A stretch of DNA of 64,000 bases from Candidatus Wolfebacteria bacterium GW2011_GWB1_47_1 (GTDB taxonomy: Bacteria; Patescibacteriota; Minisyncoccia; UBA6257; UBA9933): positions 157,352-221,351 of the forward strand of contig CP011209.1 of the NCBI GenBank assembly GCA_001029635.1, given 5' to 3'. A model generated the notes under the pieces. That model did not search any database. It worked only from the letters and a program-made list of their open reading frames with translations, and was not told the origin of the DNA. The position numbers were made by a program, and so were the translations under genes. Positions 21,976 to 57,120 of this stretch are shown here, one piece after another; the stretch's first letter is position 1; each line of letters starts with the position of its first letter.

Positions 21976-22034
21976 ATAAAAACTCTTTTTGAATATGTTC
22001 TCGACGAGTATTGCATCTGCCCGATGAGACAATT

Positions 22035-22150: not shown

Positions 22151-22259
22151 CCTATTCCCCATTTTTTTACTTTTCCACACTATTCGCTATAATTTTATAA
22201 ATCTGTATAATGATTTTTAGTAACACATAGAGAAGTGTGTTGTCGTTATTTCTTACACC

Positions 22260-23627: not shown

Positions 23628-23641
23628 TATTCATCCCGTTG

Positions 23642-23771: not shown

Positions 23772-23793
23772 CATCCTAAACAGAAATTTACCT

Positions 23794-39624: not shown

Positions 39625-42600
39625 TTATTGCCCCGCACCTCGCAAGAACTTGAAGGTGTCTTCGAAATTCTTAAAGATGACGTCGAAAATCGACTCACCC
39701 TTTTGTGGCGTGATGACTGTACGAGGACCGAATGTCGTCTTGTTGCCTGCCGAGTCGGTTGATTCGATCTTCATCTGATAGATCGTACCTGGCTTGAGGC
39801 TCGAAAGAATGATCGCATGATTATTGGTATATGTATCGAGCTGTTCTTCCTTGTTGGCAAATCCGTCCTTTACCTGTCCTGCTCCTTCCTGATAATAGAT
39901 GACGGAATTGGACAATTCATCCGTTACCCAAGTAATAACGGTCTGTACTCGGTCGTTTCGACCGGGGACAAGCGCTCCGTCTACTTTAAAGTTGGAGATC
40001 TTTGGAGCGGTGATATCGCGTACCGTCGAAACGGTCAGGGGAGCTCCGCCTTCAATCAAGTTGCCCTTTTCGTTGTATCCGAATACCGTTACTTCATATG
40101 CAGTTGCCGGGACAAGCTTATCGATGAGAATCTCGTGCTCCTTAACAAGCGTATTTTCTATCTTGCGCTGAATTTCTCCGGTTCTTACATTTTTGTATTC
40201 CACAATGGTTGATGCGGTATCTTCCGTGCTCCAAACAACATTGAAGGAAGTATTCTTTATGTTTATTACGCGTGCCGAGATTCTTGAGGCCTTTGTTGTG
40301 AAGGTTGTGTCTTGGCTACTACCCACAACTTGAGGTAGGGAGAACGATCTCACCATAAAGTGATATTTGGTATTTGGTTCCAATCCTACCAGGGTAAGCT
40401 GATGATCCGTTTCCTTTGATTCTGTGCGGGATATTTCTCCTACATACGGGTTTGGCCGCGTTGCGTCAAACTCGCTTTCTTTTGCGTAGAGAATGACTGC
40501 ATACGATTTGATGTTCGTCTTCCAGCTTATATCAGCCGTATTTTCGGTTATGGCCGTAATGCGGGGTTCTTCCACAAACGGCGGCAATACTCCCGGCAAA
40601 ATAGATTCGATGGTTTGCTCAACCTCTTCCTCATACTGTTTTACATCCTCCACAGTTCTGAGGCCAGGGCTTGCCTGGGTGAGATATTTAGTTTTGAAGG
40701 TCTGGCTTTCGGAGATCATCCGATTTGCCGACTTGTCGATCGCCTCGGCTTCAAACTTGTATTCCGTACCCATTTTCAACCCCGTTATTGTGAATTTATG
40801 ATGAGTCGTCCAATCGCGATGGCTGATGGTATCGGTAAAGGCATCTTTCCCATAATGCAAGAATCCAAGTGAAGGTTCGCTTGCATCAAACTCGATTATG
40901 GCTCCAAACGCAGTTGTGGTCGCTATTGTTATGTTCGAGATCGTCGGCGCGGTAGTGTCTTTTACCTCTGGCGGTGTAGACTGGCTCGCTCCTCCACCGA
41001 TAGTTACCACGCGCACTTCACCCTCCTGGGTTGTGGCAAACGTTGTAGACGTTGATACGGCCGCATTTCCCGATCCATCTCGGGATTCCACTGAAAACGC
41101 ATACGTCGTATTTGGAGTCAATGCGGTTCCCGCGTCCAATCCAATATTGACTGAGTGATACACGGAGAGGGTGGCGTCTGCCGGCGTATAGGTATTCATC
41201 GTAGAAGAACTTGCCCCATACCGCACTTGTGACGTTGCGGGCTCGCTTGTCTTCCAAAATACACTCACGCTGTTTGGTGTGCGGATTGGCGTAGAAACCT
41301 GAGAGATCGCCGGAGGGAAGGTATCGTTGGTCGTGCGGAAGGTGCGGTATGTACCACCGTTATCATCCATTGTGGTATTGCCCTGTACATCGGTCGATTG
41401 TACCGAGTAATAGTAGGTAGTCCCTGCGGCGAGGCCGGTGACGGGAACGGTATGGATAAAGTCTTCGGTTGTTGATGCATCTCCCACGGGGAGTGACGTT
41501 CCCCATACTTCCTTATATCCATTAAAGGACTGACTTACCGCATAGCGCACTAAGGTATCAGCAGTCTTATTGGTATGCCAGCTGACGAGCGCATTGGCAT
41601 CGGTAATGCCTTCGCCCGTGATCTGGGTGATATAGGGACCCGCAGTTGTATGGAAGGTATAACCCGCTCCGCTATTGTCATCGATTCCTTCATTAAGATT
41701 GGAATCCTTTGATGCAACCTTGAACACATAATCACTATCCGGGACAAGGGCCGAGAGTGTTACGCTGTGTGTTTGTCCGGCTCCCTGTTCTGTTGCGGTC
41801 ATGCCATAGGCGGCATCGCCTACTTTATTGTAGGACACGATTCCATCCGCGTCTTCATCGGTCTCCCACGTAATAGTCGCCCAGGTTGAGTGGACTACCG
41901 GTGCGGAAGGAGCGACGGTAAAGAGTGGTGCGTTAGAGTCGGAGCTACCGCGGCCGTCCGGGACATCGGTGAGTACTGGCGAGTACGCAGAAGTATCGTC
42001 GTCCGTATCGACGACAGCGATGCGATATGTGTACTCGGTCGATGATGCAACTTCGTTGTCGAGATAATAGGCCTGGAGCAATGTGGTCTGCGTGGCAAGT
42101 AAATCAAAGGTTATGCCATCAGCTGCCCGTTCCACGAGATAGTGCTTGAAGGTAGAGTTGGCAACATTGCCATGTACCGGCCATGAAATAAATTCCTTAT
42201 AGAGTTGGAGATCCGCCTTTGAGATATCAGTGAAGTCGATTCTGCTTGGCGCGCTCGGCGCAACGATAGATTGCTGACTTATGTTGCCCGAGCCATCGCG
42301 CACCTGTACGTAAATGGTCGGATAGCTCGAAGTCGCCACAGTCCATGTAAGCGATGATGCAGCTGTTGCGTTGGCATCAATCCACTGACCATCGGTCGCA
42401 TTGGTTGCCGACGATGACGAGGCGGTGAAGTTGGCAAATTCAGAGAAACGATATTGGAACGCCCCCTCGTCAGAGAATGCGAAGGTTAGTGCATTGGTGC
42501 GTGCGTCAAAGCGTGCCGTGGTGATCGTCGGGTCGGTAGTATCAATGACGAACGCGGAAGTTGTCGCGGTTGCGGTGCTGAAGATTGCCTCTTGGTCGTT

Positions 42601-45600
42601 GATCGTGATCCTGATCATCGCGGTGTTGGAGTAGACGCCATCAATATCTGCCTTGGCATCCCAATAGGCGCCGAGTACTGTAGCGGTCGCGCCGATCGGC
42701 TGTAAGCCGTTGGTGCCGCTTTCGAGCACGAGAGATGGAGAGGATGTCGCAATATCGGTCCAGGTGGAGCCATTGTCGGTTGAATACGCGAAGGACGGCT
42801 CGATGCGTCCCGGGATAGTTACGCCTTCCGCGGTATCCTCATCAAGAATGGTGTAGTTGACATGAACCTGTCCGTAGCGGGCATCGGTGGAGTCCGATAT
42901 GACACTTGCTGACTGCGATGAAAACGCCGGTCGGATATTGTACCCCGCACTGTTTGTATCGGTTGCTTCGTCTATATTGCCAAAGACATCGCGGATACGC
43001 ACGGTGATTGTTTCGCTGCGCGAGTCCACATGCCAAGGGAAGGTTGTTGTCGCAAGGGTAACACCATCGGATGCGAAGGCATCCCCCCAACTGTCTTCGG
43101 TTGCGACTCCTCCAACATAACCGTACCAGGTGGTACCGCCATTGCGGGAGAACTGCGCCTGAATCTGCTCATTGATCGGATGACCCGATAGTGAGACGAG
43201 GCGTAAGGTGACGTCTTTGGAGTCGGTGACTACAATTTCACTGGAATCGTTGATCAGTAAGGAACCGCCTGATAAGGTCGGTGGGGTGATGTCGAGAATA
43301 AACGAAGTCGATGTCGCGATACCGAGGTTATTGAGTTGCTCGGCATCATTTGCCGTTACGCGGATTCGAACATCGTCTTGTGAGACGTTATTAAGCTCCG
43401 TTTTTGCGTCCCAGTGTGCGGTGAACGATGCTGGGGTTGCCGATACCGTAGTGGACGCAATGTCCCCCGTTACGAGACTGGCCGGAATCCAAGTCGATTC
43501 CCCATCAAGTGAATAGGCAAAGGATGGTGTCGCTGCTATGTTATCAAGATCGGCGATCGTGTATTCGATGGTAACATCGGCATTGTTTGGATCAGGTGTC
43601 TGTGCCGCAGTAACCGTTACGATCGGTGCGCTGTTATATGACACGGTATTGGAATCAGTTGCGGGGCCATGGCCAAGAGTATCCATGATACGCACAGAGA
43701 TAGTTTCGGTCTTTTCGCCTAAGACAATATCCCACGCAACGGTTGACGTTGATGAGAACGACGTGCCATAGGCATCCTGTGCACCGATGGTGCCGTCGGC
43801 ATTTGCCGCATACCAAGTTACGCCGTCATGGGAAAGCTGTGCAATAATCAGCTCGCCTACCGGGGATCCGGTGACATCGGCCAACGTCACGGTGACGTTG
43901 GCGGAGGCTGCTTGTACGGTAGCGGAAGATCCGTTGATTACCACTGATGATTCGGTGAGTGCCGGCGCGGAAGTATCAAGATATAATGACGCATCAATCG
44001 ATGCGGAGAGGTTTCCCGCGATATCAATGTAGCGAACAGAGACGGTTTTGGTTGCGTCTCCCGCCGTAAGGGCATATGCCTTCGTGGTTGCGTATGATTC
44101 CGCGGAGGTCCAGGTGGTGCCATCTCCGGAGAATTGCATCTGAGTCACCGAATTATTGTCGGTTGCAGATAGATGCAAGACGACGTCGGTCGAGGTAGCA
44201 TAGGCGGATCCATCATTGATAACAAGGGTTCCGGTTGGTTCCTGGGTATCAAGCGTAATCGTATCGCTCGCGGTTTCGGAAATAAGGCCGGATCCATCGA
44301 TGACCTGCGCGGAAACACCTTGTATTCCATCGACACTCGGAATGGTCACGGATGATGTTGTCGCAAACGCAGACCAAGTAGACCAGGTAGCTCCTTCATC
44401 GGTTGAGGTCCGCATCTGGCTAGCCCCTGACCCTGCATCGGTTGCGGTGACCGTGAGGGTAACGGTTATGCTATTGGCAAACGCATTGTTGTCGTTAATA
44501 ACTAGTGAGATGACAGGCGCAATGGTGTCGATAAGAATATTGGCATTAGCCGATACGGACATATTATTACGTGCGTCACGGAACTGTGAGTAGACAGTCT
44601 TTAATCCCTCTCCCGTCGCAAGGGTATATGCTTTGGATGTCGCATATGATTCCCATGCAGACCAGTCGGTGTCGTTGTCGGAAAAGCGCATTGAGGCAAC
44701 TGATGATCCGGTATCAGTCGCAGAGAGATTTAATGTAACTGCCGTGGATGATGCATAGCTTGCGCCGCTATTAATGGCAATGGTTCCTGATGGAGCAATG
44801 GTATCGATCGCGAAATTTGCACTCGTTAATGATGCGGTATTACTGAATGTATCTGCATCGTCGGCGGTAAACCGAATGGCAAACGCGGAGCCACTCACGG
44901 CGCCTGCATACTGCGTCGCATCCCAGTAGGCGGAATATGAGGTATCAGTACCTGTCCCCACGGCAATCGGGGAACCAAATGCAACGCCAGCCGCATCGGT
45001 GAGTTGATTGATAGGAAGCGTTGCCCATAGCGAACCATCATACCATTCAAATGACGGTATCACCTGGTTTGTTGTGGAGTCGGTATCTCGGAGCGCGAAG
45101 TCGATCTTTATCTTGCCGAAGTTTGCGTCGGTAGAAGAAGCAAGTTGTGCGGCAGTAATAGACGCAATGGTTGGCGGTACGTTGTATGTATAGGTAGGGG
45201 TTACATCGTCAACCCTCGGCGTATATATTCCGTCAGAGGTGAGATCTACCTTGTATTGGAAATATTGATCTCCCGATCCATCCTGCATGGACGCGGGAAT
45301 TGAGGAAGAACCGCAGGTTACGGTGTCTGTAATCTTTCCACAGGCATTGGTGAAGGCTGTCCATATGCCAAGCGTATCGGTAGATGCGCCGGTACGGAGC
45401 GACACGGTAACGGAGGTATTAGCCGGAAGAGTCGTATCTTCTTTCCAGCTCAATCCGGTCATTATATTGGTCGCACTCGTGGAATTGTATAGGGAGGAAA
45501 GAAGCGAGCTTGTGGAAGCGTATCGTGCATATGTAATGGAAACGTCATCCAGTGACGGTGACTGCGAAGTATTTGCCGTCGAGAGCGTTGCCTTGTACTG

Positions 45601-48600
45601 AATGTATCGATGGCCCACCACTGCACCCAACGTGCTCAAGGAGATGCCGGTGTTAGTGGAAGCAGTGCCAAAGGATGCCGCATCAGAAAGATCAGCGGCA
45701 TTGCTGGTGCGCACCTGCATCGAAACAGTCTGTCCGCCCGAATTTGTCCACGAGAGATTGCCCCAGTTTGCCACTGCACTGCCCGCGTCCAAGACGCCGG
45801 AGGTGAAGGAGCCGGATGGATGGTAGCTGCCCGGGAAGGTAACAGACCCGGTCACGCTGTCGAGTGAGGGGGTAACTGCAGTATTTCCCCCGTTTGCCAA
45901 GGTAGCCTGATACCAGAGGTAGCGGCTATTAGATGGAGCGCAAGTCGTGTTAAGGGTGATTGACCCATTGGCGGAAACAGTCCCGGAATCGCAGGTGCCC
46001 GAAGCAAAGCTTGGCGCGCTCGCCGAGGTAGTTCCTTTAACCTTGATGCTGAAAGTTGTTCCCGAAGGATACTGTCCTGCGTACGCAAACGAGTTCCAGG
46101 TGTATGCGGCTGCGGAACCGGCGTCAAAGTAGGAAGTGTAGGTCCCGGAAGTGGCATACGATACGAGTATTCCAGGTACAAAAACAGTGTCTACAGTAGC
46201 AGTTGGCTGGATTGGAGCAGTAACACTGCCGGTCGTCGCCCCGTTGCCGACTTGGCCGGCGCCGTCATCTCCCCAGCACCATAAGCTTCCGTCGATGTAG
46301 GAGCAGGTGTGATTGTACCCCGTAGCAACCTGCGTCACGCCACTTGCAACGACCGTGGCAGGGGAATGTATGGCACCGGTAGTAGCCCCGTTGCCGATTT
46401 GGCCTAGACTGTCATCTCCCCAGCACTGCAGACTCCCGTCCGTCTTAACGGCGCAGGTGTGATTTTTCCCCGTAGCAACCTTCGTCACGCCACTTGCAAC
46501 GACCGTGGCAGGGGAAGTTATATTACCGGTGGTTCCCCCGTTACCGACTTGTCCCCAGCCATCATATCCCCAGCACTGCAGACTCCCTGATACGACGGCG
46601 CAGGTGTGATTGTCCCCCGCAGCAACCTGCGTCACACCGCTTGCGATAGCCGTGACAGGGGCAATCATGTCGTAGTTGGTCGCCGGCCCGTTGCCGACCT
46701 GGCCGGCGCCGTCACTCCCCCAACACTGCAGACTCCCGTCAGTCTTGACGGCACAGGTGTGTTTGGTCCCCGCGGCAACCTGTGCCACTCCACTTGCGAT
46801 GACCGTGACAGGGGAAGTTATGGCGCCGGTGGTCCCTCCGTTGCCAAGCTGCCCGTAGTTGTCATACCCCCAACACTGCAGACTCCCCGATACGACGGCG
46901 CAGGTGTGTTCGTACCCCGCAGCAACCTGCGTCACGCCACTTGCAATGACCTGGAACGGAGAAACGACATTGCCAGTCGTCGCCCCGTTGCCGACTTGGC
47001 CGTAGCTGTCATATCCCCAACATTGCAGACTCCCCGATACGACGGCGCAGGTGTGTGCGTACCCCGTAGCAACCTGCGTCACGCCACTCGCGATGACCTG
47101 GAACGGAGAAACGACATTGCCAGTCGTCGCCCCGTTGCCGATTTGGCCGTAGGTGTCGGATCCCCAGCACCACAGACTTCCGTCCGAGCTCTTAATGGCG
47201 CAGGTGTGAGTGCCTCCCCCGGCAACCTGGGATCCTAAAAGGGGTCCAGGCCCTTGGATGGATGGCTGGACTGGAGAAGTAATGTTACCGGTGGTTGCTC
47301 CGTTGCCGACTTGGCCTAGACTGTCATCCCCCCAACACCACAAACTCCCGTCCGTCTTGAAGGCGCAGGTGTAGTAGGTTCCCCCGGCAACCTGACTCAC
47401 TCCGGAAATTCCCGCGACTTGCACCGGCGAGAGCTGATCTTGCTCTAGGGCGTTGCCTAATTGGCCATATAGAATACTAGAATACGCATCGCTATAGCCA
47501 TTAGATCCCCAACACCACAAACTCCCGTCTGTCTTGACGGCGCAGGTGTGGTAATATCCCGTAGTTACCTGACTCACTCCGCTGGCAATGGTCTGGACTG
47601 GAGAGGTGACACTACCACTAGTTGTTCCGTTGCCGATCTGTCCGTTGCTGTTATATCCCCAGCACCACAGACTCCCGTCTGTCTTGACGGCGCAGGTGTG
47701 TAAGAAGCCCGCAGTTACCTGGCTCACTCCGCTGGCAATAATAGGGGCTGGAAGCATGACATAACCAGTGGTTGGTCCGTTACCAATCTGCCCGGCAGAG
47801 TCATTTCCCCAGCACCACAGACTCCCGTCTGTCTTGACGGCGCAGGTGTGGTAGACTCCCGTAGTTACCTGACTCACTCCGCTGGCAATGATCTGGTTCG
47901 GAGACGTGGTAAGGCCCCCGATCGATCCGATGCCGACCTGTCCATCGCTGTTATATCCCCAACACCACAAACTCCCGTCTGTCTTGACGGCGCAGGTTTG
48001 ACTCTTTCCTGCGGAAACCTGGACCACTCCGGAAATTCCTGCGACTTGCACTGGAGAGGGCTGATCTGACGGTATAGTATTGCCGAGTTGGCCAGTTAGA
48101 TCATAGCCATATCCTGACTCATAACCGTTAATTCCCCAGCACCACAGACTCCCGTCCGTCTTGACGGCGCAGGTATGACTGCTCCCCGCAGAAACCTGCG
48201 TCACTCCGCTGGCAATGATCTGGACTGGAGATGTAATAGCTCCTCCGATCACTCCGTTGCCAATCTGTCCATGATCGTTATATCCCCAGCACCACAGACT
48301 CCCGTCCGTCTTAACGGCGCAGGTGTGGTAATCCCCTACGGAAATTTGTGAAGACGTATCACGTAACGTTACGCTCGAATTAGAGCCGCTTACCCCGTTT
48401 AGGTTTGTGTCCGCATTTGCACCATATGCCCACCCTCCTTGCTGAGAGGGAGTTGCGACGGTGGATGTGTCATCGGTCGTTGTAATGCTTCCGGTCACGG
48501 ATTGCGTTGTGAGTGTAATCGAAGTTCCTGTCCCGCTTCCGGTAAGCGTGGTCGTTGCGGTGGTATACGCGCCATACGCAAACCCGCTTGCGGTTGTAGT

Positions 48601-48864
48601 TGCATCGCTTGTCTGGGTTATGGTCGTCGTCGCAAGCGGAAGGGTTAGCGCAGTCGAGGTCGCCAAGGTTGCCGAATTAAACTGTGTCCATCCCGTGCGG
48701 TTTGCCGATTCTGTTGCGATAGTGGCGGTTGCCCCGCCCGTCCACGCGTTTTGTGAAAAGCTCGCCGTAGTAGCCGCCTGCACAAAGTCTCCTTGTCCGA
48801 CTACAACGGATAGCAACGTAACCGCAACGGTTGCGACGGTAAGGGCTGATTTGAATATCTTCAT
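39625..48864 (-). CDS. Giant secreted surface protein (about 3080 aa from the MKIFKSALTV start): signal peptide, Ser/Thr-rich region, about 15 RCC1-like beta-propeller repeats, then multiple FN3/Ig-like domains
   Basis: Signal peptide MKIFKSALTVATVAVTLLSVVVGQGDFVQA. The motif HTCAVKTDGSLWCWGYNxxGQxGNG repeats about 15 times (RCC1/ATS1-type blades); FN3-like segments (TWATITWETDEDADGIVSYN, KHYLVERAADG...YTYRIAVVD). The internal track ORFs on both strands are artefacts. Confidence 0.85.
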   Translation of the reverse strand: MKIFKSALTVATVAVTLLSVVVGQGDFVQAATTASFSQNAWTGGATATIATESANRTGWTQFNSATLATSTALTLPLATTTITQTSDATTTASGFAYGAYTTATTTLTGSGTGTSITLTTQSVTGSITTTDDTSTVATPSQQGGWAYGANADTNLNGVSGSNSSVTLRDTSSQISVGDYHTCAVKTDGSLWCWGYNDHGQIGNGVIGGAITSPVQIIASGVTQVSAGSSHTCAVKTDGSLWCWGINGYESGYGYDLTGQLGNTIPSDQPSPVQVAGISGVVQVSAGKSQTCAVKTDGSLWCWGYNSDGQVGIGSIGGLTTSPNQIIASGVSQVTTGVYHTCAVKTDGSLWCWGNDSAGQIGNGPTTGYVMLPAPIIASGVSQVTAGFLHTCAVKTDGSLWCWGYNSNGQIGNGTTSGSVTSPVQTIASGVSQVTTGYYHTCAVKTDGSLWCWGSNGYSDAYSSILYGQLGNALEQDQLSPVQVAGISGVSQVAGGTYYTCAFKTDGSLWCWGDDSLGQVGNGATTGNITSPVQPSIQGPGPLLGSQVAGGGTHTCAIKSSDGSLWCWGSDTYGQIGNGATTGNVVSPFQVIASGVTQVATGYAHTCAVVSGSLQCWGYDSYGQVGNGATTGNVVSPFQVIASGVTQVAAGYEHTCAVVSGSLQCWGYDNYGQLGNGGTTGAITSPVTVIASGVAQVAAGTKHTCAVKTDGSLQCWGSDGAGQVGNGPATNYDMIAPVTAIASGVTQVAAGDNHTCAVVSGSLQCWGYDGWGQVGNGGTTGNITSPATVVASGVTKVATGKNHTCAVKTDGSLQCWGDDSLGQIGNGATTGAIHSPATVVASGVTQVATGYNHTCSYIDGSLWCWGDDGAGQVGNGATTGSVTAPIQPTATVDTVFVPGILVSYATSGTYTSYFDAGSAAAYTWNSFAYAGQYPSGTTFSIKVKGTTSASAPSFASGTCDSGTVSANGSITLNTTCAPSNSRYLWYQATLANGGNTAVTPSLDSVTGSVTFPGSYHPSGSFTSGVLDAGSAVANWGNLSWTNSGGQTVSMQVRTSNAADLSDAASFGTASTNTGISLSTLGAVVGHRYIQYKATLSTANTSQSPSLDDVSITYARYASTSSLLSSLYNSTSATNIMTGLSWKEDTTLPANTSVTVSLRTGASTDTLGIWTAFTNACGKITDTVTCGSSSIPASMQDGSGDQYFQYKVDLTSDGIYTPRVDDVTPTYTYNVPPTIASITAAQLASSTDANFGKIKIDFALRDTDSTTNQVIPSFEWYDGSLWATLPINQLTDAAGVAFGSPIAVGTGTDTSYSAYWDATQYAGAVSGSAFAIRFTADDADTFSNTASLTSANFAIDTIAPSGTIAINSGASYASSTAVTLNLSATDTGSSVASMRFSDNDTDWSAWESYATSKAYTLATGEGLKTVYSQFRDARNNMSVSANANILIDTIAPVISLVINDNNAFANSITVTLTVTATDAGSGASQMRTSTDEGATWSTWSAFATTSSVTIPSVDGIQGVSAQVIDGSGLISETASDTITLDTQEPTGTLVINDGSAYATSTDVVLHLSATDNNSVTQMQFSGDGTTWTSAESYATTKAYALTAGDATKTVSVRYIDIAGNLSASIDASLYLDTSAPALTESSVVINGSSATVQAASANVTVTLADVTGSPVGELIIAQLSHDGVTWYAANADGTIGAQDAYGTSFSSTSTVAWDIVLGEKTETISVRIMDTLGHGPATDSNTVSYNSAPIVTVTAAQTPDPNNADVTIEYTIADLDNIAATPSFAYSLDGESTWIPASLVTGDIASTTVSATPASFTAHWDAKTELNNVSQDDVRIRVTANDAEQLNNLGIATSTSFILDITPPTLSGGSLLINDSSEIVVTDSKDVTLRLVSLSGHPINEQIQAQFSRNGGTTWYGYVGGVATEDSWGDAFASDGVTLATTTFPWHVDSRSETITVRIRDVFGNIDEATDTNSAGYNIRPAFSSQSASVISDSTDARYGQVHVNYTILDEDTAEGVTIPGRIEPSFAYSTDNGSTWTDIATSSPSLVLESGTNGLQPIGATATVLGAYWDAKADIDGVYSNTAMIRITINDQEAIFSTATATTSAFVIDTTDPTITTARFDARTNALTFAFSDEGAFQYRFSEFANFTASSSSATNATDGQWIDANATAASSLTWTVATSSYPTIYVQVRDGSGNISQQSIVAPSAPSRIDFTDISKADLQLYKEFISWPVHGNVANSTFKHYLVERAADGITFDLLATQTTLLQAYYLDNEVASSTEYTYRIAVVDTDDDTSAYSPVLTDVPDGRGSSDSNAPLFTVAPSAPVVHSTWATITWETDEDADGIVSYNKVGDAAYGMTATEQGAGQTHSVTLSALVPDSDYVFKVASKDSNLNEGIDDNSGAGYTFHTTAGPYITQITGEGITDANALVSWHTNKTADTLVRYAVSQSFNGYKEVWGTSLPVGDASTTEDFIHTVPVTGLAAGTTYYYSVQSTDVQGNTTMDDNGGTYRTFRTTNDTFPPAISQVSTPIRTPNSVSVFWKTSEPATSQVRYGASSSTMNTYTPADATLSVYHSVNIGLDAGTALTPNTTYAFSVESRDGSGNAAVSTSTTFATTQEGEVRVVTIGGGASQSTPPEVKDTTAPTISNITIATTTAFGAIIEFDASEPSLGFLHYGKDAFTDTISHRDWTTHHKFTITGLKMGTEYKFEAEAIDKSANRMISESQTFKTKYLTQASPGLRTVEDVKQYEEEVEQTIESILPGVLPPFVEEPRITAITENTADISWKTNIKSYAVILYAKESEFDATRPNPYVGEISRTESKETDHQLTLVGLEPNTKYHFMVRSFSLPQVVGSSQDTTFTTKASRISARVINIKNTSFNVVWSTEDTASTIVEYKNVRTGEIQRKIENTLVKEHEILIDKLVPATAYEVTVFGYNEKGNLIEGGAPLTVSTVRDITAPKISNFKVDGALVPGRNDRVQTVITWVTDELSNSVIYYQEGAGQVKDGFANKEEQLDTYTNNHAIILSSLKPGTIYQMKIESTDSAGNKTTFGPRTVITPQKGESIFDVIFKNFEDTFKFLRGAGQ

Positions 48865-49075
48865 TCTATTGTAGCGTTTAGAGAATTGCATTGTATGTAT
48901 AAGTGTGTGTTTGTTTGAATAGGTTCTTCGTGTGGTATCACTTCGTAGTGGGGCTGGCTGTATATAAATCCCTTGGGGTGACTCCGGGGGTCGACTTCCA
49001 CCGGGGTCCCGATATCGTTTTTTAAAATGCAAAAATTCACTTTTTTGAAAAGTGTTCCGCAGTTCACGTATACGC

Positions 49076-49146
49076 AATGACGCACGCAAGAGTGTCATGT
49101 GTGTTCGTAGAGAATTCGTTTTTCATTTCCACGCAAATAGAAATGA
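49076..49146. promoter_or_regulatory. Conserved upstream region of giant gene 1 (AATGACGCACGCAAGAGTGTCAT ... TTCCACGCAAATAGAAATGA), repeated in inverted orientation upstream of giant gene 2 (58831-58892)
   Basis: 23-bp and 20-bp blocks are identical at both loci in the same orientation relative to each gene, 200-250 bp upstream of the start codons. Confidence 0.55.
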
Positions 49147-49253: not shown

Positions 49254-50681
49254 ATGAAACGAATTTTATTTTTTATTGTTCCGATTATCGTTCTGGTAGT
49301 CGGTGTATATTTTTTTGCGCCATCAAAAAATCATAGCAAGGTGCTCGTCATCGGCATTGATGGAGCAACCTGGGATATTGCTCAGCCGATGATTGACCGA
49401 GGGGAACTCCCCACACTTAAAATGCTCATCGATTCGGGCATCTCGGGACATCTAGCCTCAATTGATCAGCCCGTCGTACCGGCCGCCTGGGTATCTTTTG
49501 CGACCGGGCAAGAATCCGGCAGTACGGGGGTCTTTGATTTCTTAACCCCCATATCCAACTCCTATGATTTTCGCATTATTGCCCCGGGAGAGCTCAAAAC
49601 CCCTGCCCTTTGGGAGCTTATCGGCAATGCAGGGAAAAAAGTTGGCCTAATTAACTTTTTATTTTATCCTGCCCCTGTGGTTAACGGGTTTTCGATATCC
49701 GGAGAACTTACGCCTGCCGATCTCCTTAGTGAGCTTGCCGATTCCACATACCCAAAGTCTCTTAATCAAGAGCTTTCCGCCGTTGGTCCCTACCATATTG
49801 ACGCAAAAAAGTTTGAAGATCCTGAAGGTTTTCTTAAAAGCATCAATACTTCCCTTGTTGAGCGTACAAATAGTGCCGAATATCTGGTACGAACCAAAAA
49901 AGTGGATGCTTCCTTCGTTATTTTTAATGAGACGAATCGCTTGCAGCATTTTTTCTGGAAATACCAAGATCCCCGTAATTCAGCCTACATTCCGGGCAAC
50001 CCGTATGAACGCGCGATCAGCGATCACTATAAGGCGCTTGATAATGCCATAAAAAGGCTTATTGCGGCTGCCGACGAAGATACTCGAGTTCTCGTCTTCT
50101 CGAATCATGGGTTTGGAGGTCTCTATAAGATCGTTTCCATCAATACATGGCTTCAACAGCAGCATTTGATCTCGTTTTCCCCTGATTTGGGGCAAAAATA
50201 TGCAGATATCGTTAACTGGCATGAGACGCAGGCATTTTTCCCAAGTCAATTTCAAGGTATCTTTATCAATGCGACCGGTCGCTATCCACAGGGTATTGTC
50301 ACTGAGACACAATATGAGACACTTCGCTCTCATATCATCGATCGCATACTCACGCTCCGCGATCCGCAGACGAATGCACTGATCGTGACCAAGGCGGAAC
50401 GAAGAGAGGATGCCTATCCAGGAGCGAACAATGCCTCACTTCCTGATATTATTCTTACCTTCGCACCAGGCTATCATGCATCCAATGAGGTTGGTGGGGC
50501 GCTCGTCAGACCCTCTACCTATTGGTCGGGCATCCACAATCAAGATGGTATGTATATCTTGTCGCATCCTGAACAGAAACCCACCAAGCGCGATGCACAC
50601 ATCCTTGATCTTGCTCCGACGATATTGCAAATGCTCGATATTCCTATACCAAAGAATCTAACAGGAACGCCTATTATCTAG
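49254..50681 (+). CDS. Alkaline-phosphatase-superfamily protein (type I phosphodiesterase / nucleotide pyrophosphatase-like), membrane-anchored
   Basis: N-terminal TM segment; VLVIGIDGATWD metal-site motif typical of the AlkP/NPP family; HGFGG and further family hallmarks. Confidence 0.65.
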   Translation: MKRILFFIVPIIVLVVGVYFFAPSKNHSKVLVIGIDGATWDIAQPMIDRGELPTLKMLIDSGISGHLASIDQPVVPAAWVSFATGQESGSTGVFDFLTPISNSYDFRIIAPGELKTPALWELIGNAGKKVGLINFLFYPAPVVNGFSISGELTPADLLSELADSTYPKSLNQELSAVGPYHIDAKKFEDPEGFLKSINTSLVERTNSAEYLVRTKKVDASFVIFNETNRLQHFFWKYQDPRNSAYIPGNPYERAISDHYKALDNAIKRLIAAADEDTRVLVFSNHGFGGLYKIVSINTWLQQQHLISFSPDLGQKYADIVNWHETQAFFPSQFQGIFINATGRYPQGIVTETQYETLRSHIIDRILTLRDPQTNALIVTKAERREDAYPGANNASLPDIILTFAPGYHASNEVGGALVRPSTYWSGIHNQDGMYILSHPEQKPTKRDAHILDLAPTILQMLDIPIPKNLTGTPII

Positions 50682-50766
50682 AACCGATCCGGCTTTGCCC
50701 CGCCATCGCGCAGACCCCTTCTAGCGGACCCGATCATTTGACTCGTGCTCAGTATGGATACACATA

Positions 50767-50796
50767 AAAAACACTCAGCCGTATGGCTGAGTGTTT
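50767..50796. terminator. Bidirectional terminator between convergent genes
   Basis: AAAACACTCAGCCGTATGGCTGAGTGTTTT. Confidence 0.65.
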
Positions 50797-50802
50797 TTCA
50801 TG

Positions 50803-52092
50803 TCAGAGTTCTCCTGCGGTCATTGCCCAGAAGGTTCCCTTGTCGATAGTATTCTTTTTCCAGGTATCGCCTTCTTTATAATATTGCATGAGGTGCCCCT
50901 CGCTGATATTATTCAGTCCGACCGGTTTGCTATCCTTTGGCCGAATGATGGACAGTGAATTTACATATACCTCGTAGTTCGCATCCTTGTCGATATCATA
51001 GGCGAATGCGTCATATCCTCCGCTATTTTTGCCCACAAACTCAGGCAGCTTGGATAGATTATCTATCTCCGTCTTTACGAAATCGCTCCCCGTAAAGTCA
51101 TACATAAATACGTATCCATCCGGGTCGGTTGAAACGAATAGCTCTTCACGTCCGTCGTTGTCAAAATCCTTCGCGGTGATTGCCTTGTTGTTATCTTGTT
51201 TTACGTTGTCATCAATCACGCGCTTTTCCCATACGCCATCCTTTTTTGCGTATGCGACTAATATGCTGTTTGGCCATGTACCCGCCACAATTACATTGCG
51301 CCCATCGCCATAGAGGTTATGCGCAATTGATAATCTGCGATGTTGTCGTCCCTCAAGGTGTCCGGCAATTTCCCGTACCCATTTGCCGCCTTCGTAATGA
51401 TATACGCCAACCCAACTTTCCGGTTCGCCCTTATACATGTTTCCGGTACCGTGTGCGGCGATGAGCTCATTTTTCCCGTCTCCATCTACGTCAGCGATTT
51501 CTACCGTATGGATCGCGGTTTGATATGTTTTTCCACTTGGCGTTATCACAGTGCGGCCATCATCCCCGTCCATTTCCCGCGTGATATTTTGCATTACCAC
51601 ATCTTTTTTCCACTGCTGGTCGCCTTCATTCCATGTGTATACGATAACCATCCCCTCTCCATGTGTTGCGATGACAATCGAGTTCGTGCCATTGTTGTAC
51701 GCATCGCCTATTTCAATATCTCGGCAGAATGGCTCGCCCATCGAATCCACGACGGATGACCTGAACCCATCATTTGTTTTTTCGTAGATTTTTATCGCGC
51801 AATGATCGCTGTCATATGTCCGTTTGTTGATTGTTGCGACAACCATGGCAACACCGTTATTTTTCACGTCGCCAACTTTAATGTCAAAGATCGATTCTTC
51901 CCCCACTTCATCAATCACCTGCTTTATAAATGTGCCATCCTCGAGCTTATATGCGATAAGTTGTCCTGGAACAAGCGTTCCCCCGAATACATACTGCTCC
52001 TTTTTAGGTATGCCATATTGCTGAATAAGCACAAATGCGATAATAATAACTGCCACTGCGATACCCGTTCTGTATTTTTTTATAAATTCCAT
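50803..52092 (-). CDS. Membrane-anchored FG-GAP/VCBS-repeat beta-propeller protein
   Basis: TM anchor IAVAVIIIAFVLI; repeated D-x-D/N-x-D-G-xxE-L motifs (DVDGDGKNELIA, DFDNDGREELFV, DKDANYEVYV). The start is chosen at MEFIKKY, 5 nt after the upstream stop. Confidence 0.6.
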   Translation of the reverse strand: MEFIKKYRTGIAVAVIIIAFVLIQQYGIPKKEQYVFGGTLVPGQLIAYKLEDGTFIKQVIDEVGEESIFDIKVGDVKNNGVAMVVATINKRTYDSDHCAIKIYEKTNDGFRSSVVDSMGEPFCRDIEIGDAYNNGTNSIVIATHGEGMVIVYTWNEGDQQWKKDVVMQNITREMDGDDGRTVITPSGKTYQTAIHTVEIADVDGDGKNELIAAHGTGNMYKGEPESWVGVYHYEGGKWVREIAGHLEGRQHRRLSIAHNLYGDGRNVIVAGTWPNSILVAYAKKDGVWEKRVIDDNVKQDNNKAITAKDFDNDGREELFVSTDPDGYVFMYDFTGSDFVKTEIDNLSKLPEFVGKNSGGYDAFAYDIDKDANYEVYVNSLSIIRPKDSKPVGLNNISEGHLMQYYKEGDTWKKNTIDKGTFWAMTAGEL

Positions 52093-52096
52093 AATG

Positions 52097-52705
52097 TTAG
52101 TTACACGTAAAACTTTCCAGTTGTTTTTTTGCTCGGTCGACACCGAATGTATGTTTAGACGAAAGTATTTCTATATTAACAAGTTTTTGTGCTTCGGGAC
52201 AATATACCAATGTTAGCATTCCCTTGTAGATCGCCTGGTCTTCAGTCATCACCATATAGGAGAAATAGCGATCTGCGAATGCCAGGAAGGAGGGTGTTTC
52301 CCTCCCTTGTATTTCTACCGTTTCTTTTTGGGGTTTAAGCTGGTCTGGCACCTGTGCTACGGCTGCGATGAGGTCCGCGTAAATTCCAAGAATCTCCTCT
52401 GGTGCAAAGTGCGCATCCATTGTTTGAAAAATACCCTCCGTCCTTTTTATCGCCTCCTCCTCAGTGACGCGGTCTATTATTTTTATGCGAATGATATCCT
52501 CGTTGCTTTTCGCAGTCAGCTCGATATTTTTATTTCCGCCATAAAAGAATTCATCATACGCGCTCACGCGAAACCCGTCATCGTATATCGCGATCCCCTG
52601 TGTCCAGAGGTGCCACCGGAGTGTATACGAGCCATACCAGAGTATCCCCGATATTGCCGCGAGCAACGCGACACCTCCCGCAACTCTATAAGTATTTTTT
52701 TTCAT
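52097..52705 (-). CDS. Hypothetical membrane-anchored protein (202 aa), operon member
   Basis: N-terminal TM VAGGVALLAAISGILWY; its start overlaps the permease stop (ATGA). Confidence 0.5.
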   Translation of the reverse strand: MKKNTYRVAGGVALLAAISGILWYGSYTLRWHLWTQGIAIYDDGFRVSAYDEFFYGGNKNIELTAKSNEDIIRIKIIDRVTEEEAIKRTEGIFQTMDAHFAPEEILGIYADLIAAVAQVPDQLKPQKETVEIQGRETPSFLAFADRYFSYMVMTEDQAIYKGMLTLVYCPEAQKLVNIEILSSKHTFGVDRAKKQLESFTCN

Positions 52706-53397
52706 CGTATTATGCGCTTACTTATGAGTTCGACCCCCGCCAGTATGACCAGTGTTGGAAATATGCTGAGTAATAGTATTTCTCCGGTAGAAACGATCGA
52801 TTCCTTTCCGAAAAGCAGCATCGTTCCTTGGTACAGATAGGTTGCTGGTATCCATTTCGCGATCGCTAGTTGTGTTGCCGACCGCAAGGGGACAAGAACC
52901 CCAGAAGCCGTAAGTATTGCGAACATGCTTGACGCAAACAATAGCGTCCTCATTTCCGCGACAAACGGCACAAGTAATACGCCGACCGTACTTGCAAAGA
53001 GCGCTGTAGAAAGGAATGCGAATGAATGCGCTCCAATTGCCTCTCCCGCTCCGCTCGGCGATAGTAGCCAAATCCCTGCGAGTAGCGGCAAAAACTGCAC
53101 TGTCATTATGAGGGTGTTGGCAATAATTTCACCCCACACAACATATACCGGACGTATCGGCGCAACCGCAATCGTTTGTAATGCTCCCTTTGCCCTGTCT
53201 TCTCCCAGCGCTTGCCCCACGCCAAATATTCCGAAGATGAGCGTAAGTATGGTTATTACCGAAGCGACAAAAAATACATTGGTCGGCAATGCCATAAGCG
53301 GTATGACTGCGATTGCGGGAATGACCATGCGCAATATAAATAACCCTCGCCGCTTTGCTATCGTTTGCATTCTTTTTTTTATAATAGACTGTATCAT
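52702..53397 (-). CDS. ABC-2-type transporter permease
   Basis: Six TM segments in 231 aa; translationally coupled (4-nt overlap) to the ATPase gene. Confidence 0.7.
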   Translation of the reverse strand: MIQSIIKKRMQTIAKRRGLFILRMVIPAIAVIPLMALPTNVFFVASVITILTLIFGIFGVGQALGEDRAKGALQTIAVAPIRPVYVVWGEIIANTLIMTVQFLPLLAGIWLLSPSGAGEAIGAHSFAFLSTALFASTVGVLLVPFVAEMRTLLFASSMFAILTASGVLVPLRSATQLAIAKWIPATYLYQGTMLLFGKESIVSTGEILLLSIFPTLVILAGVELISKRIIR

Positions 53398-54308
53398 TGC
53401 AAGTGTATTCCTGTCTTTTGCAAAAAGACATCCGCTAAGGTTGCCCGATTGATCCGAATATCACAGATATCCCCCCCTGCATCCACGATGCCTCGTATGA
53501 TTTCCGCAAGTGCTCCACGCTCCGCGCTCATGCGAACGCGCCCATCTTTTACCGCTACCGATTTGACGCCATTTATTTCTCCGATTTTTTGTATGGCAAT
53601 AAAATTCTTAAGGTGGAGATCTATCTCTTGCAGATCGACAATATCCGCAAGGAGTGCAGTCACCGTTTCTTTATTGATAATAGTCCCCTGATGTACGAAT
53701 GCCACCGTATCACATATAGATTCAGCTTCCGTGATCTCGTTTGTAGTGAGCAGTATCGCAGATCCTTCGCGCGCCAGTCTCTGTAGCCGTTCTTGCACCA
53801 CATATTTCGACGCGTAATCAAGCCCCGTAAAAGGCTCATCGAGTATAAGCACCTTTGGTTTTCGCAGTATTGCCTCCGCAAGGTCGACTTTTCTCCGCAT
53901 TCCAAACGAATAATTTTTCATGGGAATGTCGAGTGCGTCGCTCAGGAATAATTCCTTTACGATTTCTTCATCAAACGCTTTCTGCTTATATAATTTATTT
54001 ACGAAGGCAATATTTTCCCTCCCCGTCAGATCCTCGAAGTAGGAACTTGTCTCGAATACAATCCCCGCTTCGTTTCCAACTGCAGCTTCTGCGATTCTTG
54101 AATCGTAACCCCCTATCGTATACCAACCCGCTGTAGGATTCTGATACCCTGCAAGCGTTCGTATGAGCGTAGACTTCCCTGATCCATTCGACCCCAAAAT
54201 CCCCATAATCTCGCCGGGTTCCACTAAAAAGGTAGCTTCTTTGATTCCTCTACCTGATGTTTTGTATACCGATGCAAGCTGCTGCACCACAATGCCGTGC
54301 TTGTTCAT
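53394..54308 (-). CDS. ABC transporter ATP-binding protein
   Basis: Walker A GSNGSGKSTLIRTL, signature region and Walker B VLILDEPFTGLD. Confidence 0.85.
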   Translation of the reverse strand: MNKHGIVVQQLASVYKTSGRGIKEATFLVEPGEIMGILGSNGSGKSTLIRTLAGYQNPTAGWYTIGGYDSRIAEAAVGNEAGIVFETSSYFEDLTGRENIAFVNKLYKQKAFDEEIVKELFLSDALDIPMKNYSFGMRRKVDLAEAILRKPKVLILDEPFTGLDYASKYVVQERLQRLAREGSAILLTTNEITEAESICDTVAFVHQGTIINKETVTALLADIVDLQEIDLHLKNFIAIQKIGEINGVKSVAVKDGRVRMSAERGALAEIIRGIVDAGGDICDIRINRATLADVFLQKTGIHLQ

Positions 54309-54357
54309 ATGACTTCTTTGCGTATAATGAAGAGTATATCATATTTTTTTATTACCC

Positions 54358-55788
54358 ATGCAGCGCACATCATTTATCGGACTTCTCGCTACTGCCGCCA
54401 TTGCCGGGGTTGGTGGTGTTTTCTACGTTACTCCCACGCTTCGATCGCAAATTGCATCCCGCTCAACGCACTCCGCGCCAACGGCAAGCATTGACACGCT
54501 TGCGTCACGGGTCGAAGAGCGTCTTATTGAAATGGGCTATTTGGAGAGTGGGGATGCCCCACCTTCTCAATCGGTTGCAGAAACCCTTGTCACGCCAAAG
54601 CCGCTCCAGTCACTTCCCCCCTCCCTTACAAAAAAACCGATCCGCCCATCCGGCGAAAAGGTTATTGTGATTGGCGCGGCAACGAACGGAGCACAGGAAA
54701 GTAAAGGGGTAATCGTTGTCGTGCACCCATCGCGTAATTTTGCGCACGAAATCATCCCATTTTCTACGCTCATCAGCCATGCAACATTTTTTGATACGGA
54801 CGGAGATGGGCATGATGAGTTGTTATCCGCAACGATGGGATCGCTCCATACGCTTACTCCCCGTCAGGATTGGAAATCAGCCATCTTTGCTACCACGCCC
54901 GAATTTCGTTTACGTAAGCTGGCAAAAGGAGATATTGATGGCGATGGTCAACGGGAGCTTGCCGTGAGCACGCATAAAAATGGACAGACGATTCTTCTCC
55001 GGCACGTGCAGGGCATATGGAAGCAGACTATTCTTGGACAGCGGATGTACGGGGAGGGCGCTACCGAAAATCACGATGTATTGATGGCCGACCTCGATCG
55101 TGATGGCAAGGATGAGGTCATCGCAACCCCGACCACGGCAAAGGTGATGGGTCAAATAGATGCATGGGGGGGGAAGTTACAAGTGTTTGACTATGAAAAT
55201 AACGCCTGGTCAAACAAAATCATCGACTCCTTTTCCGGTGGATCGTTCGCTCGACGAGTACTCTATGCCGATGCTGACAATGACGGGTCAAAGGAACTCG
55301 TAGCGCTCATCGAGGGTGATCTACGTAACAGCCGCGTTTCTCAGTATGCTTCGTGCAATAATTGTGAGGATCGCCCGCTCACGCTTGTTTCATATATATA
55401 CGAAAAAGGTTTATACACACGGAAAGTTCTTCTCACGCCGAAACAACTCGTGGTTCATAGTCGAATAGCATTCTCGCCTTCCTTCGCAATTGCCGATGTA
55501 ACCGGCTCGGGGGAAAATTCGATTATCGTAACGACCCCTACCGGAATCATAGTATTTACTGATGGAACCATGTCTTCGGTCGATACATTTGGGGATGTTT
55601 CGCTCTTTACCCTCATTACGGACATCGACGAAGATGGTGTTAATGACATTGTCGTATATTCACACCAGCAAGAGAGCCTGCTTGCCTACTCATTACGCGA
55701 TGGCATTTGGGATAAAAAGGTACTTGCACACATACCGCTTAATGACACGAAGCTATTCGTTTGGTCAATCGAATTGGGAACCATCTGA
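54358..55788 (+). CDS. Secreted FG-GAP/VCBS-repeat beta-propeller protein
   Basis: Signal peptide [20 protein letters not shown]; repeats [63 protein letters not shown]. Confidence 0.6.
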
Positions 55789-56236
55789 GCGCAGCGAAAA
55801 TACCCCAAATAAAATGACCCCCATAAAGTGGACACGAAATAAAAACATCGTGTCTATTTTTTTGTATCACCATTCATCCCCGGGAGTAAAACTATCGGCT
55901 TTGGTCGATCGTTTAAAATTATCACGCTTCAGCCCATCGATCATCTCTGAAGAGGCGGGAGTTTTCATCTCAATAGATTTTAGCTCAAGGCTAAAATGAC
56001 ACACCAAGCGCATGGTCATCCTGGACTTGTCTCGCACTGAGCTTGCCGAAGTGATCCGGAATCTCGTGTACTTGCCACAAGATCCTGAATCCGTTGACTG
56101 ACGGATCAGAATGACAGATCGCTCTGGTGCTAATTTTCGTCCGAAATACGTATTAGATATATAGGCGTTGACCGGTCGGATAAAAATGGATATAAGAAAG
56201 GTAGTACGAGTAAGAATGAAAAAGGAGGAGGCGGAC

Positions 56237-56686
56237 ATGCAAAAAGTATTGGTTGTGATGCAGGATGATGTGGCGAGTTTGCGGGACGAGCGGATCAGCT
56301 ACGAAGGAGGCATCGTACCAAAGAGGAGTGGGGCAGGAGCGCAGTGTACGCGGGAGATACTCTCGGAGATTATTGCCCTGGCGGGCATACATGTTGTTGA
56401 GGCGAAAGACGAGGCGGTTCTCTCCCGGGCAATAGATGAACAAGGGGCCGAGATTGGAGTTGCGTTAGTAGTCCAACAAGGGGCAGGCAACTACGAGAGC
56501 CTTAAGTATCTGGAAAAGATACGGAGCACCTGCGGGGAACGAATTGTCGTTATTGGCATAGCAGAGAGCGTTCAGTGCATGGAGGCAATGGTTACACTTC
56601 GGGTGGATAAGTTGCTTGGAGCTCCCTTGGGAAACATAAACCTGGACGAGTTACTTAAGGTAGTTCAGGGGTATGTAATGAAATAA
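56237..56686 (+). CDS. Hypothetical protein with a receiver-like (CheY-fold-like) pattern but no phospho-acceptor Asp
   Basis: Strong RBS AAGGAGGAGG; an alternating beta/alpha pattern (KVLVVMQDD...IGVALVV...IVVIGIA); weak call. Confidence 0.35.
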   Translation: MQKVLVVMQDDVASLRDERISYEGGIVPKRSGAGAQCTREILSEIIALAGIHVVEAKDEAVLSRAIDEQGAEIGVALVVQQGAGNYESLKYLEKIRSTCGERIVVIGIAESVQCMEAMVTLRVDKLLGAPLGNINLDELLKVVQGYVMK

Positions 56687-56687
56687 A

Positions 56688-56722
56688 AAATGGCGAGCCT
56701 CCGGGCTCGCCATTATTGTTAT
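56688..56722. terminator. Bidirectional terminator
   Basis: AAAAATGGCGAGCCTCCGGGCTCGCCATTATTG. Confidence 0.6.
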
Positions 56723-57120
56723 AAAAAAATATTACTGTAATGTACTACGTCAAAATAATTTTTGCCGAATTTATACGAGGAAGGTGAGGGAGAAGATAAA
56801 AGGATGATGGAGATAAGATCGATGCGCCAGCCCTTCGAGGGTGGAACAAGATTGGGATGTTTATTTGCGTAATAGGTAGCCATTCGGGAAAGTTTGAAGA
56901 ACTTTGAACGGGTAAGATTATCTTCGGGGGTTAGGGAGGCAGGAGAAGAAAGCGTCTTCACTTCAACCAGGACAAGAGTGCCGTCGGGATCACGCGTGAC
57001 GATATCGAGTTCTCCGAAGGAGGTTCGGACATTGGTTTCGATAATGGAATAGGAAATGTCACGGAGATAAGATGCTGCGCAAGCTTCGCCAAGTGAGCCA
57101 ACAGAAAGGTGAGTGATCAT
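56719..57120 (-). CDS. YraN/UPF0102-family endonuclease
   Basis: GEACAASYLRDISYSIIETNVRTSFGELDIVTRDPDGTLVLVEVKT matches the UPF0102 signature (GE...A..YL...GY...N.R...GEIDI...LVFVEVK). Confidence 0.7.
   Translation of the reverse strand: MITHLSVGSLGEACAASYLRDISYSIIETNVRTSFGELDIVTRDPDGTLVLVEVKTLSSPASLTPEDNLTRSKFFKLSRMATYYANKHPNLVPPSKGWRIDLISIILLSSPSPSSYKFGKNYFDVVHYSNIFL

Follow-up and report, generated by a model that had tools for sequence, protein, structure and literature searches.

Transporters of the ABC-2 type that work with partners outside the cytoplasmic membrane are a known kind of system. Exporters of the TarGH, Wzm-Wzt and ABCA types feed extracytoplasmic transferases, adaptors of the LpqN type serve lipid exporters, and NosFY is an ABC-2 pair that acts with periplasmic partners. 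The locus described here lies in a 64,000-nucleotide stretch of Candidatus Wolfebacteria bacterium GW2011_GWB1_47_1, an ultra-small bacterium of groundwater (contig CP011209.1, positions 157,352 to 221,351), referred to below as the window. It consists of a four-gene operon, encoding an ABC ATPase, an ABC-2-type permease, a membrane-anchored ectodomain protein (gene 3) and a transmembrane-anchored FG-GAP propeller, together with a convergent gene for an AlkP-superfamily protein and a divergent gene for a second FG-GAP protein. The components belong to known folds and superfamilies; what is new is their combination, its cross-domain distribution and a probable pseudoenzyme. An earlier reading of this DNA (the original prediction) had taken the association to be undescribed, and a full-text literature search indeed found no published account of FG-GAP, ABC and AlkP genes together.

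The conserved partner of the propeller is an AlkP enzyme, not a transporter. Contexts of the propeller subfamily were collected from exact-protein look-ups, GTDB genomes and JGI metagenomes and were scored with hidden Markov models (HMMs) built for this analysis, yielding 27 non-redundant propeller loci, the window included, from bacteria of the Candidate Phyla Radiation (CPR) and from DPANN or other archaea. In 20 of these, an AlkP-superfamily gene was at most one gene away from the propeller, in arrangements that varied from directly upstream on the same strand to convergent, divergent or co-directional. Six of the seven loci with no AlkP neighbour were contigs that end beside the propeller, and only L035 had full flanks and no AlkP gene. 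ABC ATPase genes were found near the propeller only in the window, L007 and L023, with none within about 8 kb in 22 other propeller loci. The ABC genes and the propeller, grouped in one module by the original prediction, are thus not a conserved core. The AlkP association is confined to the close propeller subfamily; locus L014, which carries one of the broader VCBS homologs (P0019, E ≈ 1e-16), has neither an AlkP nor an ABC neighbour. Genome hits of the subfamily came from metagenome-assembled genomes (MAGs) of Patescibacteria, Levybacteria and Aenigmatarchaeota and from one MAG labelled Gammaproteobacteria, and other propeller contigs bear archaeal markers (S19e, Rpr2 and aEF1A-like genes).

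Our favoured reading, to which we assign a probability of about 40%, is that these proteins make up a membrane-surface module that processes a phosphate-containing envelope lipid or lipid-linked glycoconjugate, coupled in this organism to an ABC-2 exporter. The complex would work at the outer surface of the cytoplasmic membrane, in the assembly or remodelling of the lipid or glycoconjugate. The propeller and the PsbP-like gene 3 protein would be non-catalytic partners of an AlkP-type enzyme that either bind substrate or provide a scaffold, while the ABC-2 pair would deliver a lipidic substrate from the membrane to these partners, or couple ATP binding to them. The AlkP protein of the window would serve as a binding subunit, and any catalytic partner would be encoded elsewhere. 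We infer the physical complex from gene adjacency and the substrate class from genomic context.

At most loci the AlkP partner is a protein of about 450–520 residues with a single transmembrane segment, which scores 150–176 bits against Pfam Sulfatase (PF00884). In each of the 24 distinct copies the nucleophile position is occupied by Thr and the Arg of the CxPxR motif is missing, while the metal-binding Asp and the Asp-His pair are retained. Because Thr replaces Cys/Ser and the CxPxR Arg is missing, we class these partners, on their active-site sequences, as Thr-nucleophile AlkP enzymes of the phosphoryl-transfer type, not formylglycine sulfatases. A true sulfatase accompanied by an anaerobic sulfatase-maturase was considered for the archaeal loci and was rejected on the same residues.

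The window and L007 differ in that the convergent neighbour of the propeller belongs to the COG3379 branch of PF01663. The window protein matches Pfam Phosphodiest (PF01663) with 113.3 bits (cut-off 23) and aligns over its full length with homologs from Brocadia, Chloroflexi and haloarchaea. A literature search found no characterised member of COG3379, and sequence searches found no relative of the window protein with a solved structure. The original prediction had called it an ectoenzyme. The AlkP linkage proved stronger than supposed, but the window copy has lost the catalytic residues, namely the Ser/Thr nucleophile and the two Asp metal ligands that its COG3379 relatives keep. In an alignment with its 120 best homologs (121 sequences), the nucleophile position is Ser (79) or Thr (39) in 118 homologs, Val75 in the window protein and Phe in its 51% identical ortholog P0126. 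The first metal-site Asp, present in the same number of homologs, is Asn228 in the window protein and Asn in P0126, and the Asp-His of the second metal site is Asn284-His and Asn-Ser, respectively. The only other deviant among the 121 is P0125, a 97% identical twin with the same Val and first Asn, in which the second metal site is replaced by an alignment gap. Since conservation extends over the full length at 50% identity, the protein is probably a maintained pseudoenzyme, catalytically dead as judged from these residues.

The block of ABC ATPase, permease, gene 3 and propeller is intact in L007 and L023, with 40–55% identity and entirely different flanks; these loci, with L024 as a partial one, are the only relatives at 53–55% identity. 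This retention of four genes while the flanks change is one reason for favouring a role in envelope processing, and it bears out the original prediction of a linked cell-surface module. In L023 a Thr-type sulfatase-fold gene lies directly downstream of the propeller, so that the block and the AlkP gene are all on one strand. In L007, the gene directly upstream of the ABC ATPase gene (4140–5711, +) encodes a COG3379 paralog that appears to be intact, having Ser as the nucleophile and the motif SDHG; the gene at the equivalent position in the window is the divergent FG-GAP paralog.

The second accessory protein leads to the same enzymes. A word-indexed search retrieved four homologs of gene 3, and an exhaustive HMMER search 25 representatives of about 200 residues, with an N-terminal anchor, conserved cysteines (C169 and C201 invariant) and no match to any named family. 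Outside the ABC clade, gene 3 homologs adjoin AlkP genes in six of six informative loci. The order at L029 is gene 3, Thr-type AlkP, propeller, Thr-type AlkP; at L048 a Sulfatase gene starts 4 nt downstream of the gene 3 homolog, and at L021 a COG3379 gene follows immediately. Two Thr-type genes and one COG3379 gene lie nearby at L019, and a convergent Phosphodiest gene encoding 655–665 residues is found at L020 and L022, the latter with an upstream Sulfatase gene as well. Because gene 3 family members adjoin AlkP genes outside the ABC clade, each of the two accessory proteins in the window operon is linked to AlkP independently of the other. These loci, the 20 of 27 propeller loci and the one-strand array of L023 together argue for the envelope-processing module, as does the Thr-type chemistry of the partners. 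So does the probable PsbP/Mog1-like fold of gene 3, with matches among binders of envelope lipids and proteins (LpqN, score 8.9; DcrB, 8.8; TplEi, 9.9) as well as to PsbP (10.9) and the PknH sensor domain (8.2). There is no sequence similarity between gene 3 and the LpqN/LprG adaptors of mycobacterial MmpL, DcrB or the TplEi/Tli immunity proteins; moreover, LpqN and LprG serve exporters of the RND class (MmpL), whereas the transporter beside gene 3 is of the ABC-2 type.

All six open reading frames (ORFs) of the original prediction were present at the same positions in the ORF list of the window (Table 1). The prediction had joined the four operon genes by 4-nt overlaps. Two of the three junctions are indeed ATGA overlaps, between the ATPase and permease genes (53394–53397) and between the permease gene and gene 3 (52702–52705), whereas the third, with ATG 52092 as the start of the propeller, is a spacer of 4 nt. 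This start is backed by the N-terminus of every homolog in the alignment; the alternative GTG 52143 would overlap gene 3 by 47 nt. The hairpin that separates the propeller gene from the convergent AlkP gene has folding energies of −23.2 kcal/mol (+ strand) and −27.5 kcal/mol (− strand), with z ≈ −9. This anatomy, with two overlaps, a short spacer and a terminator common to the operon and the AlkP gene, is a further reason for the favoured reading. The paralog gene is monocistronic, with its own hairpin and T-run at about 55830–55864. A promoter consensus scan found no more matches than in shuffled sequences, so the TATAAT of the divergent region is a sequence match only. At gathering thresholds, Rfam detected only tRNAs, all elsewhere in the window, and no regulatory RNA or riboswitch near the operon. 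Hydropathy analysis gave a single N-terminal hydrophobic segment each for gene 3, both propellers and the AlkP protein. The original prediction of a divergent, secreted FG-GAP paralog was right as to fold and orientation, but with one such segment a secreted protein is indistinguishable from a membrane-anchored one.

Table 1. Positions of the operon and adjoining features in the window.
Feature	Positions	Strand	Description
ABC ATPase	53394–54308	−	304 aa; DrrA/ABCA-like, C-terminal DrrA1-3_C-like region; Pfam ABC_tran
ABC-2-type permease	52702–53397	−	231 aa; six predicted transmembrane helices, no large outside loop
Gene 3, membrane-anchored ectodomain protein	52097–52705	−	202 aa; probable PsbP/Mog1-like fold; conserved Cys169-Cys201 pair; no Pfam match
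Operon propeller, transmembrane-anchored seven-bladed FG-GAP	50803–52092	−	429 aa from ATG 52092; FG-GAP_3
Bidirectional intrinsic terminator hairpin	50765–50798	both	Between convergent propeller and AlkP genes; A-run before, T-run after
AlkP-superfamily protein, COG3379-type, transmembrane-anchored	49254–50681	+	475 aa; Phosphodiest; degenerate catalytic residues
Divergent intergenic region, AT-rich	54309–54357		49 bp between ATPase gene and FG-GAP paralog; TATAAT at 54323–54328
Divergent FG-GAP paralog	54358–55788	+	476 aa; N-terminal hydrophobic segment, low-complexity linker of about 100 aa, then propeller

Both propellers exceed the FG-GAP_3 cut-off of 26.9 bits (38.9 bits for the operon propeller and 57.0 bits for the paralog, which also scores 40.3 bits against FG-GAP). 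The AlphaFold2 model of the operon propeller (pLDDT 90.5, pTM 0.89) contains a transmembrane helix at residues 2–27 followed, from residue 33, by 28 strands that form seven blades, in line with the original prediction that the last gene encodes a membrane-anchored propeller. Since the fold begins five residues past the helix, the modelled propeller is seated directly on the membrane, without a stalk, and this close seating also favours a module that acts on envelope lipids. The Foldseek matches of the model, to the propellers of aldos-2-ulose dehydratase (AUDH), integrin alpha and KICSTOR, were limited to the fold (TM-score about 0.5, about 0.52 for KICSTOR; 11–14% identity). Integrin alpha, ITFG2 (KICSTOR) and aldos-2-ulose dehydratase share with it the seven-bladed FG-GAP architecture and the calcium-type DxDxDG loops; the operon propeller, unlike them, is a bacterial ectodomain with a transmembrane anchor, and its score of 22.6 bits against Itfg2 (PF15907) is under the cut-off of 27. 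A polysaccharide-lyase or carrageenase assignment was dismissed, as Pfam Beta-prop_CGLA gave only sub-threshold matches of 18–20 bits to single repeats.

The close homologs (E < 1e-33) constitute a subfamily of 420–460 residues in which C98, C123, T143-H144-G-E-G147, H195 and a DxDGxNE calcium-type loop (residues 201–209) are invariant, the last represented in the operon propeller by DVDGDGKNE. The TH..G motif, H195 and the loop residues are also kept in a wider set of 36 sequences. The divergent paralog is only 21–27% identical to the operon propeller (E 2e-10) and scores 73 bits with the subfamily HMM, compared with 592 bits for the operon copy; it is not conserved at the L007 and L023 loci. 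A tandem pair of subfamily genes is present at L038 (2325–4011), a short metagenome contig; at no other locus is a propeller of the close subfamily duplicated.

The integrin-alpha-like fold raises the question of host attachment, in which the FG-GAP propellers would bind host ligands beside giant RCC1 proteins. The module does lie between two such surface giants (the second, from 58879 to the window end, was confirmed as an RCC1 protein, as had been predicted), and the linker of the paralog could reach outward. We nevertheless regard adhesion, one of the roles named in the original prediction, as very unlikely, because the operon propeller is stalkless, its conserved partners are enzymes and not adhesins, and the predicted co-occurrence with RCC1 giants breaks down in the relatives: in L007, a 53% relative, the neighbouring giant is of the WD40/PD40 type, and no giant gene is present at L023. 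That the paralog is not conserved at either locus points the same way.

The ATPase is a clear member of ABC_tran (PF00005; 96.9 bits, cut-off 25), with Walker A GSNGSGKST and Walker B VLILDEP. The assignment of its partner as an ABC-2 permease is less direct and only probable. The window permease has six predicted hydrophobic helices and reaches only 22.6 bits against ABC2_membrane_3 (PF12698; cut-off 31.6), but its orthologs (39–43% identity) match ABC2_membrane (PF01061) with 2.1e-11 and ABC2_membrane_3 with 1.2e-9. No relative of the permease with a solved structure was found by sequence, either singly or as a profile. The best solved relatives of the ATPase are the nucleotide-binding domains (NBDs) of ABCA3, ABCA4, ABCA7 and ABCA1 (E 1e-43), and this closeness to lipid transporters supports the favoured reading.

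Among named NCBIfam families, the ATPase scored best with drrA (TIGR01188), in a full-length match that includes the C-terminal domain, followed by GldA (TIGR03522; 134.5 bits, cut-off 402.6). ABC-2 pumps being common, the pair might be a plain DrrAB-type efflux or immunity pump that is merely co-transcribed with unrelated surface proteins. The drrA score of 192.2 bits, however, is far below the cut-off of 312.45, the Q-loop, signature and H-loop are non-canonical, and two ectodomain genes are joined to the pair in the operon through overlaps or a short spacer. Given also that the four genes stay together in three lineages in which all flanks have changed, such a pump is highly improbable.

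By alignment with ABCA3, the Q-loop Gln of the ATPase is replaced by Glu86, the signature reads YSFGM for LSGGM, and the H-loop His is replaced by Asn190. These non-canonical motifs are shared by the orthologs in L007 (5717–6625) and L023 (5672–6586), with the signature YS[FY]GM, and in the L023 protein the Walker B Glu is replaced by Asp as well. A homodimer of the ATPase would have every site degenerate. Changes of this kind usually cripple ATP hydrolysis; that they are conserved here suggests an ATPase that works slowly or as a switch, and not one in decay.

Such a switch would suit a device similar to NosDFY or FtsEX, in which no solute is moved and ATP binding reshapes the tethered partners, so that an extracytoplasmic AlkP metalloenzyme, for instance, is metallated, activated or regulated. 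The minimal permease with no outside loop and the translational coupling of the ectodomain partners fit this mechanism, as do the need of AlkP enzymes for metals loaded outside the cell and the match of gene 3 to PsbP, whose fold is found in proteins that stabilise the metal cluster of photosystem II. The locus resembles NosDFY(L) in encoding an ABC-2 ATPase and a six-helix permease with extracytoplasmic accessory proteins, with the likely output on an outside partner and not in bulk solute transport. It differs in its accessory proteins, namely an FG-GAP propeller and a protein of PsbP-like fold; no NosD β-helix, NosL or NosZ domains were found at the locus or in its relatives, and no link to copper is evident. 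Furthermore, no metallochaperone or metal-binding motif was identified at the locus, the window AlkP protein lacks two metal ligands, and most propeller/AlkP loci have no ABC genes. We therefore consider a mechanotransmission or maturation device unlikely, and return to processing of an envelope lipid or glycoconjugate.

The genes around the relatives are consistent with that substrate class and form another part of the case for it. In L023 the block is followed (10845–17106) by genes for a radical SAM enzyme, a UbiA prenyltransferase, a 543-residue putative glycosyltransferase (LA_3751-like) and glycosyltransferases of the GT2 and GT1 families. The radical SAM enzyme is related to tetraether synthase Tes and to TrsS, with scores of about 143 bits that are well below the cut-offs. 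Archaeal loci likewise have, near the propeller/AlkP pair, homologs of this enzyme, of UbiA, of the 543-residue protein and of a 302-residue unknown; the set, GT2 included, was seen in L009 (4995–6383 and 10671–13450), L011, L034, L044 and L026 besides L023, on a CPR-like contig as well as on archaeal ones, and looks like a cross-domain envelope-lipid or glycan cluster. Further loci contain Wzy_C, PMT_2, GT2 and nucleotide-sugar enzymes. Among the nearest described counterparts are TarGH and Wzm-Wzt with Thr-nucleophile AlkP-fold enzymes of the LtaS or EptA type, which have the ABC-2 architecture in common with the operon, and L023 adds to this a Thr-nucleophile AlkP-fold ectoenzyme and glycosyltransferase and prenyl-lipid genes. 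In contrast to LtaS and EptA, with their five-helix lipid-binding domain, the partner enzymes have one transmembrane helix; there is no Wzt carbohydrate-binding domain, and the window has only the dead AlkP homolog.

The same partners could instead serve acquisition, with AlkP phosphodiesterases and their helpers harvesting phosphate, head groups or lipids from a host or the environment and the ABC-2 pair handling a lipidic product. The family is restricted to genomes of the type found in the CPR and DPANN, which have reduced biosynthesis, the active sites of the partners are of a Thr-nucleophile phosphodiesterase type, the NBD is ABCA-like, and the NPP family includes hydrolases of lipid head groups. 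ABC-2 systems are as a rule exporters, however, and the recurrent neighbours (glycosyltransferases, UbiA, radical SAM and nucleotide-sugar enzymes) are biosynthetic. With the AlkP protein of the window itself predicted to be inactive, scavenging appears distinctly unlikely. A broader proposal, which we would also hold only as an improbable one, is a surface enzyme complex common to the ultra-small episymbionts of the CPR and DPANN: a Thr-type AlkP ectoenzyme, a membrane-hugging propeller and a PsbP-fold protein, tied to the Tes/TrsS-like radical SAM and UbiA genes, would make, remodel or take up lipids of the membrane or surface polymers linked to lipid, and Wolfebacteria would have added a non-canonical ABC-2 pair and a pseudo-phosphodiesterase subunit.

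Several observations weigh against the processing of an envelope lipid or glycoconjugate by an exporter-coupled module. The ABC genes are missing from most propeller loci, so that transport is not intrinsic to the job of the propeller, and vigorous ATP-driven export is doubtful when three motif residues are missing from all three ATPase orthologs. The only AlkP protein of the window is catalytically degenerate, an HMM scan found no Thr-type AlkP gene anywhere in the 64 kb, and the lipid and glycan genes of the relatives are all missing from the window. Many of the metagenome loci come from the same sediment project, and the counts are thus not fully independent. Finally, the function is deduced from sequences and models.

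The original prediction had treated the operon as part of an island, which is not supported: the GC content of the region (0.46–0.48) is similar to that of the neighbouring sequence, no tRNA flanks it, and it has core-gene neighbours. The window is core chromosome near dnaA and dnaN, with topA, ligA, relA, dnaE, thrS, fusA and a class A penicillin-binding protein gene. Because the cumulative GC skew has its minimum beside dnaA (22260–23627) and dnaN (23794–24912), at about 20000–24000 of the window, the replication origin is probably about 27 kb from the operon, in which case the module belongs to the origin-proximal core chromosome. The adjacent tyrosine recombinase resembles a chromosomal Xer-type gene and is kept in all strains. 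The locus is nearly unchanged in GCA_003453235.1, GCA_001000945.1, GCA_001002795.1 and several metagenomes, and the proteins of the region are 96–100% identical to Candidatus Wolfebacteria MAG proteins from the Rifle aquifer. An anti-phage defence function was also rejected, as PADLOC returned only generic P-loop matches for the ATPase and none for the other six proteins.

Some further features of the window were noted. The 3157-residue RCC1/fn3 giant (39625–49098, −) is represented in the near-identical strains (L001–L006) by proteins of 3079, 529 + 2485, 1022 + 1945, 3157 and 652 + 2436 residues, which reflects either strain variation in a giant surface protein or the difficulty of assembling its gene. 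Downstream of the FG-GAP paralog, a 172-residue ORF (56168–56686, +) has no Pfam, NCBIfam or PADLOC match, and its start differs between gene callers (149 or 166 residues); a perfect 11-bp GC-rich hairpin (56689–56714) is common to it and the convergent UPF0102 (YraN-like) gene at 56719–57120. Three odd tRNA-like genes are clustered at 12251–12540 (−) within a gene-free stretch (11306–13191): a gene with an “anticodon” of 2 nt, a tRNA-Ile(gat) of 81 nt, and a 77-nt tRNA whose TCA anticodon would read UGA (designated SeC by ARAGORN). With the Rfam tRNA model, 12467–12540 scored 51.7 bits, and 12254–12331 just reached the threshold with 29.4 bits. The cluster may encode suppressor tRNAs or tRNAs with introns.

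The genomes of CPR bacteria and DPANN archaea are tiny, and many of these organisms lack the synthesis of lipids and envelope precursors. For annotation, the results mean that an “AlkP ectoenzyme” should not be assumed to be active, that the “sulfatase” partners are not sulfatases on their active-site residues, and that the ABC link is specific to one clade. The Wolfebacteria version presents two directly testable oddities, a conserved AlkP protein with the marks of a pseudoenzyme and an ABC ATPase that is missing three catalytic-motif residues. The tethered FG-GAP propeller, the PsbP-like protein and the Thr-type AlkP ectoenzymes form a recurrent, unnamed gene set found in both domains, and if these proteins form a complex, it would offer a concrete way into the study of how CPR and DPANN organisms form their envelopes or handle lipids.

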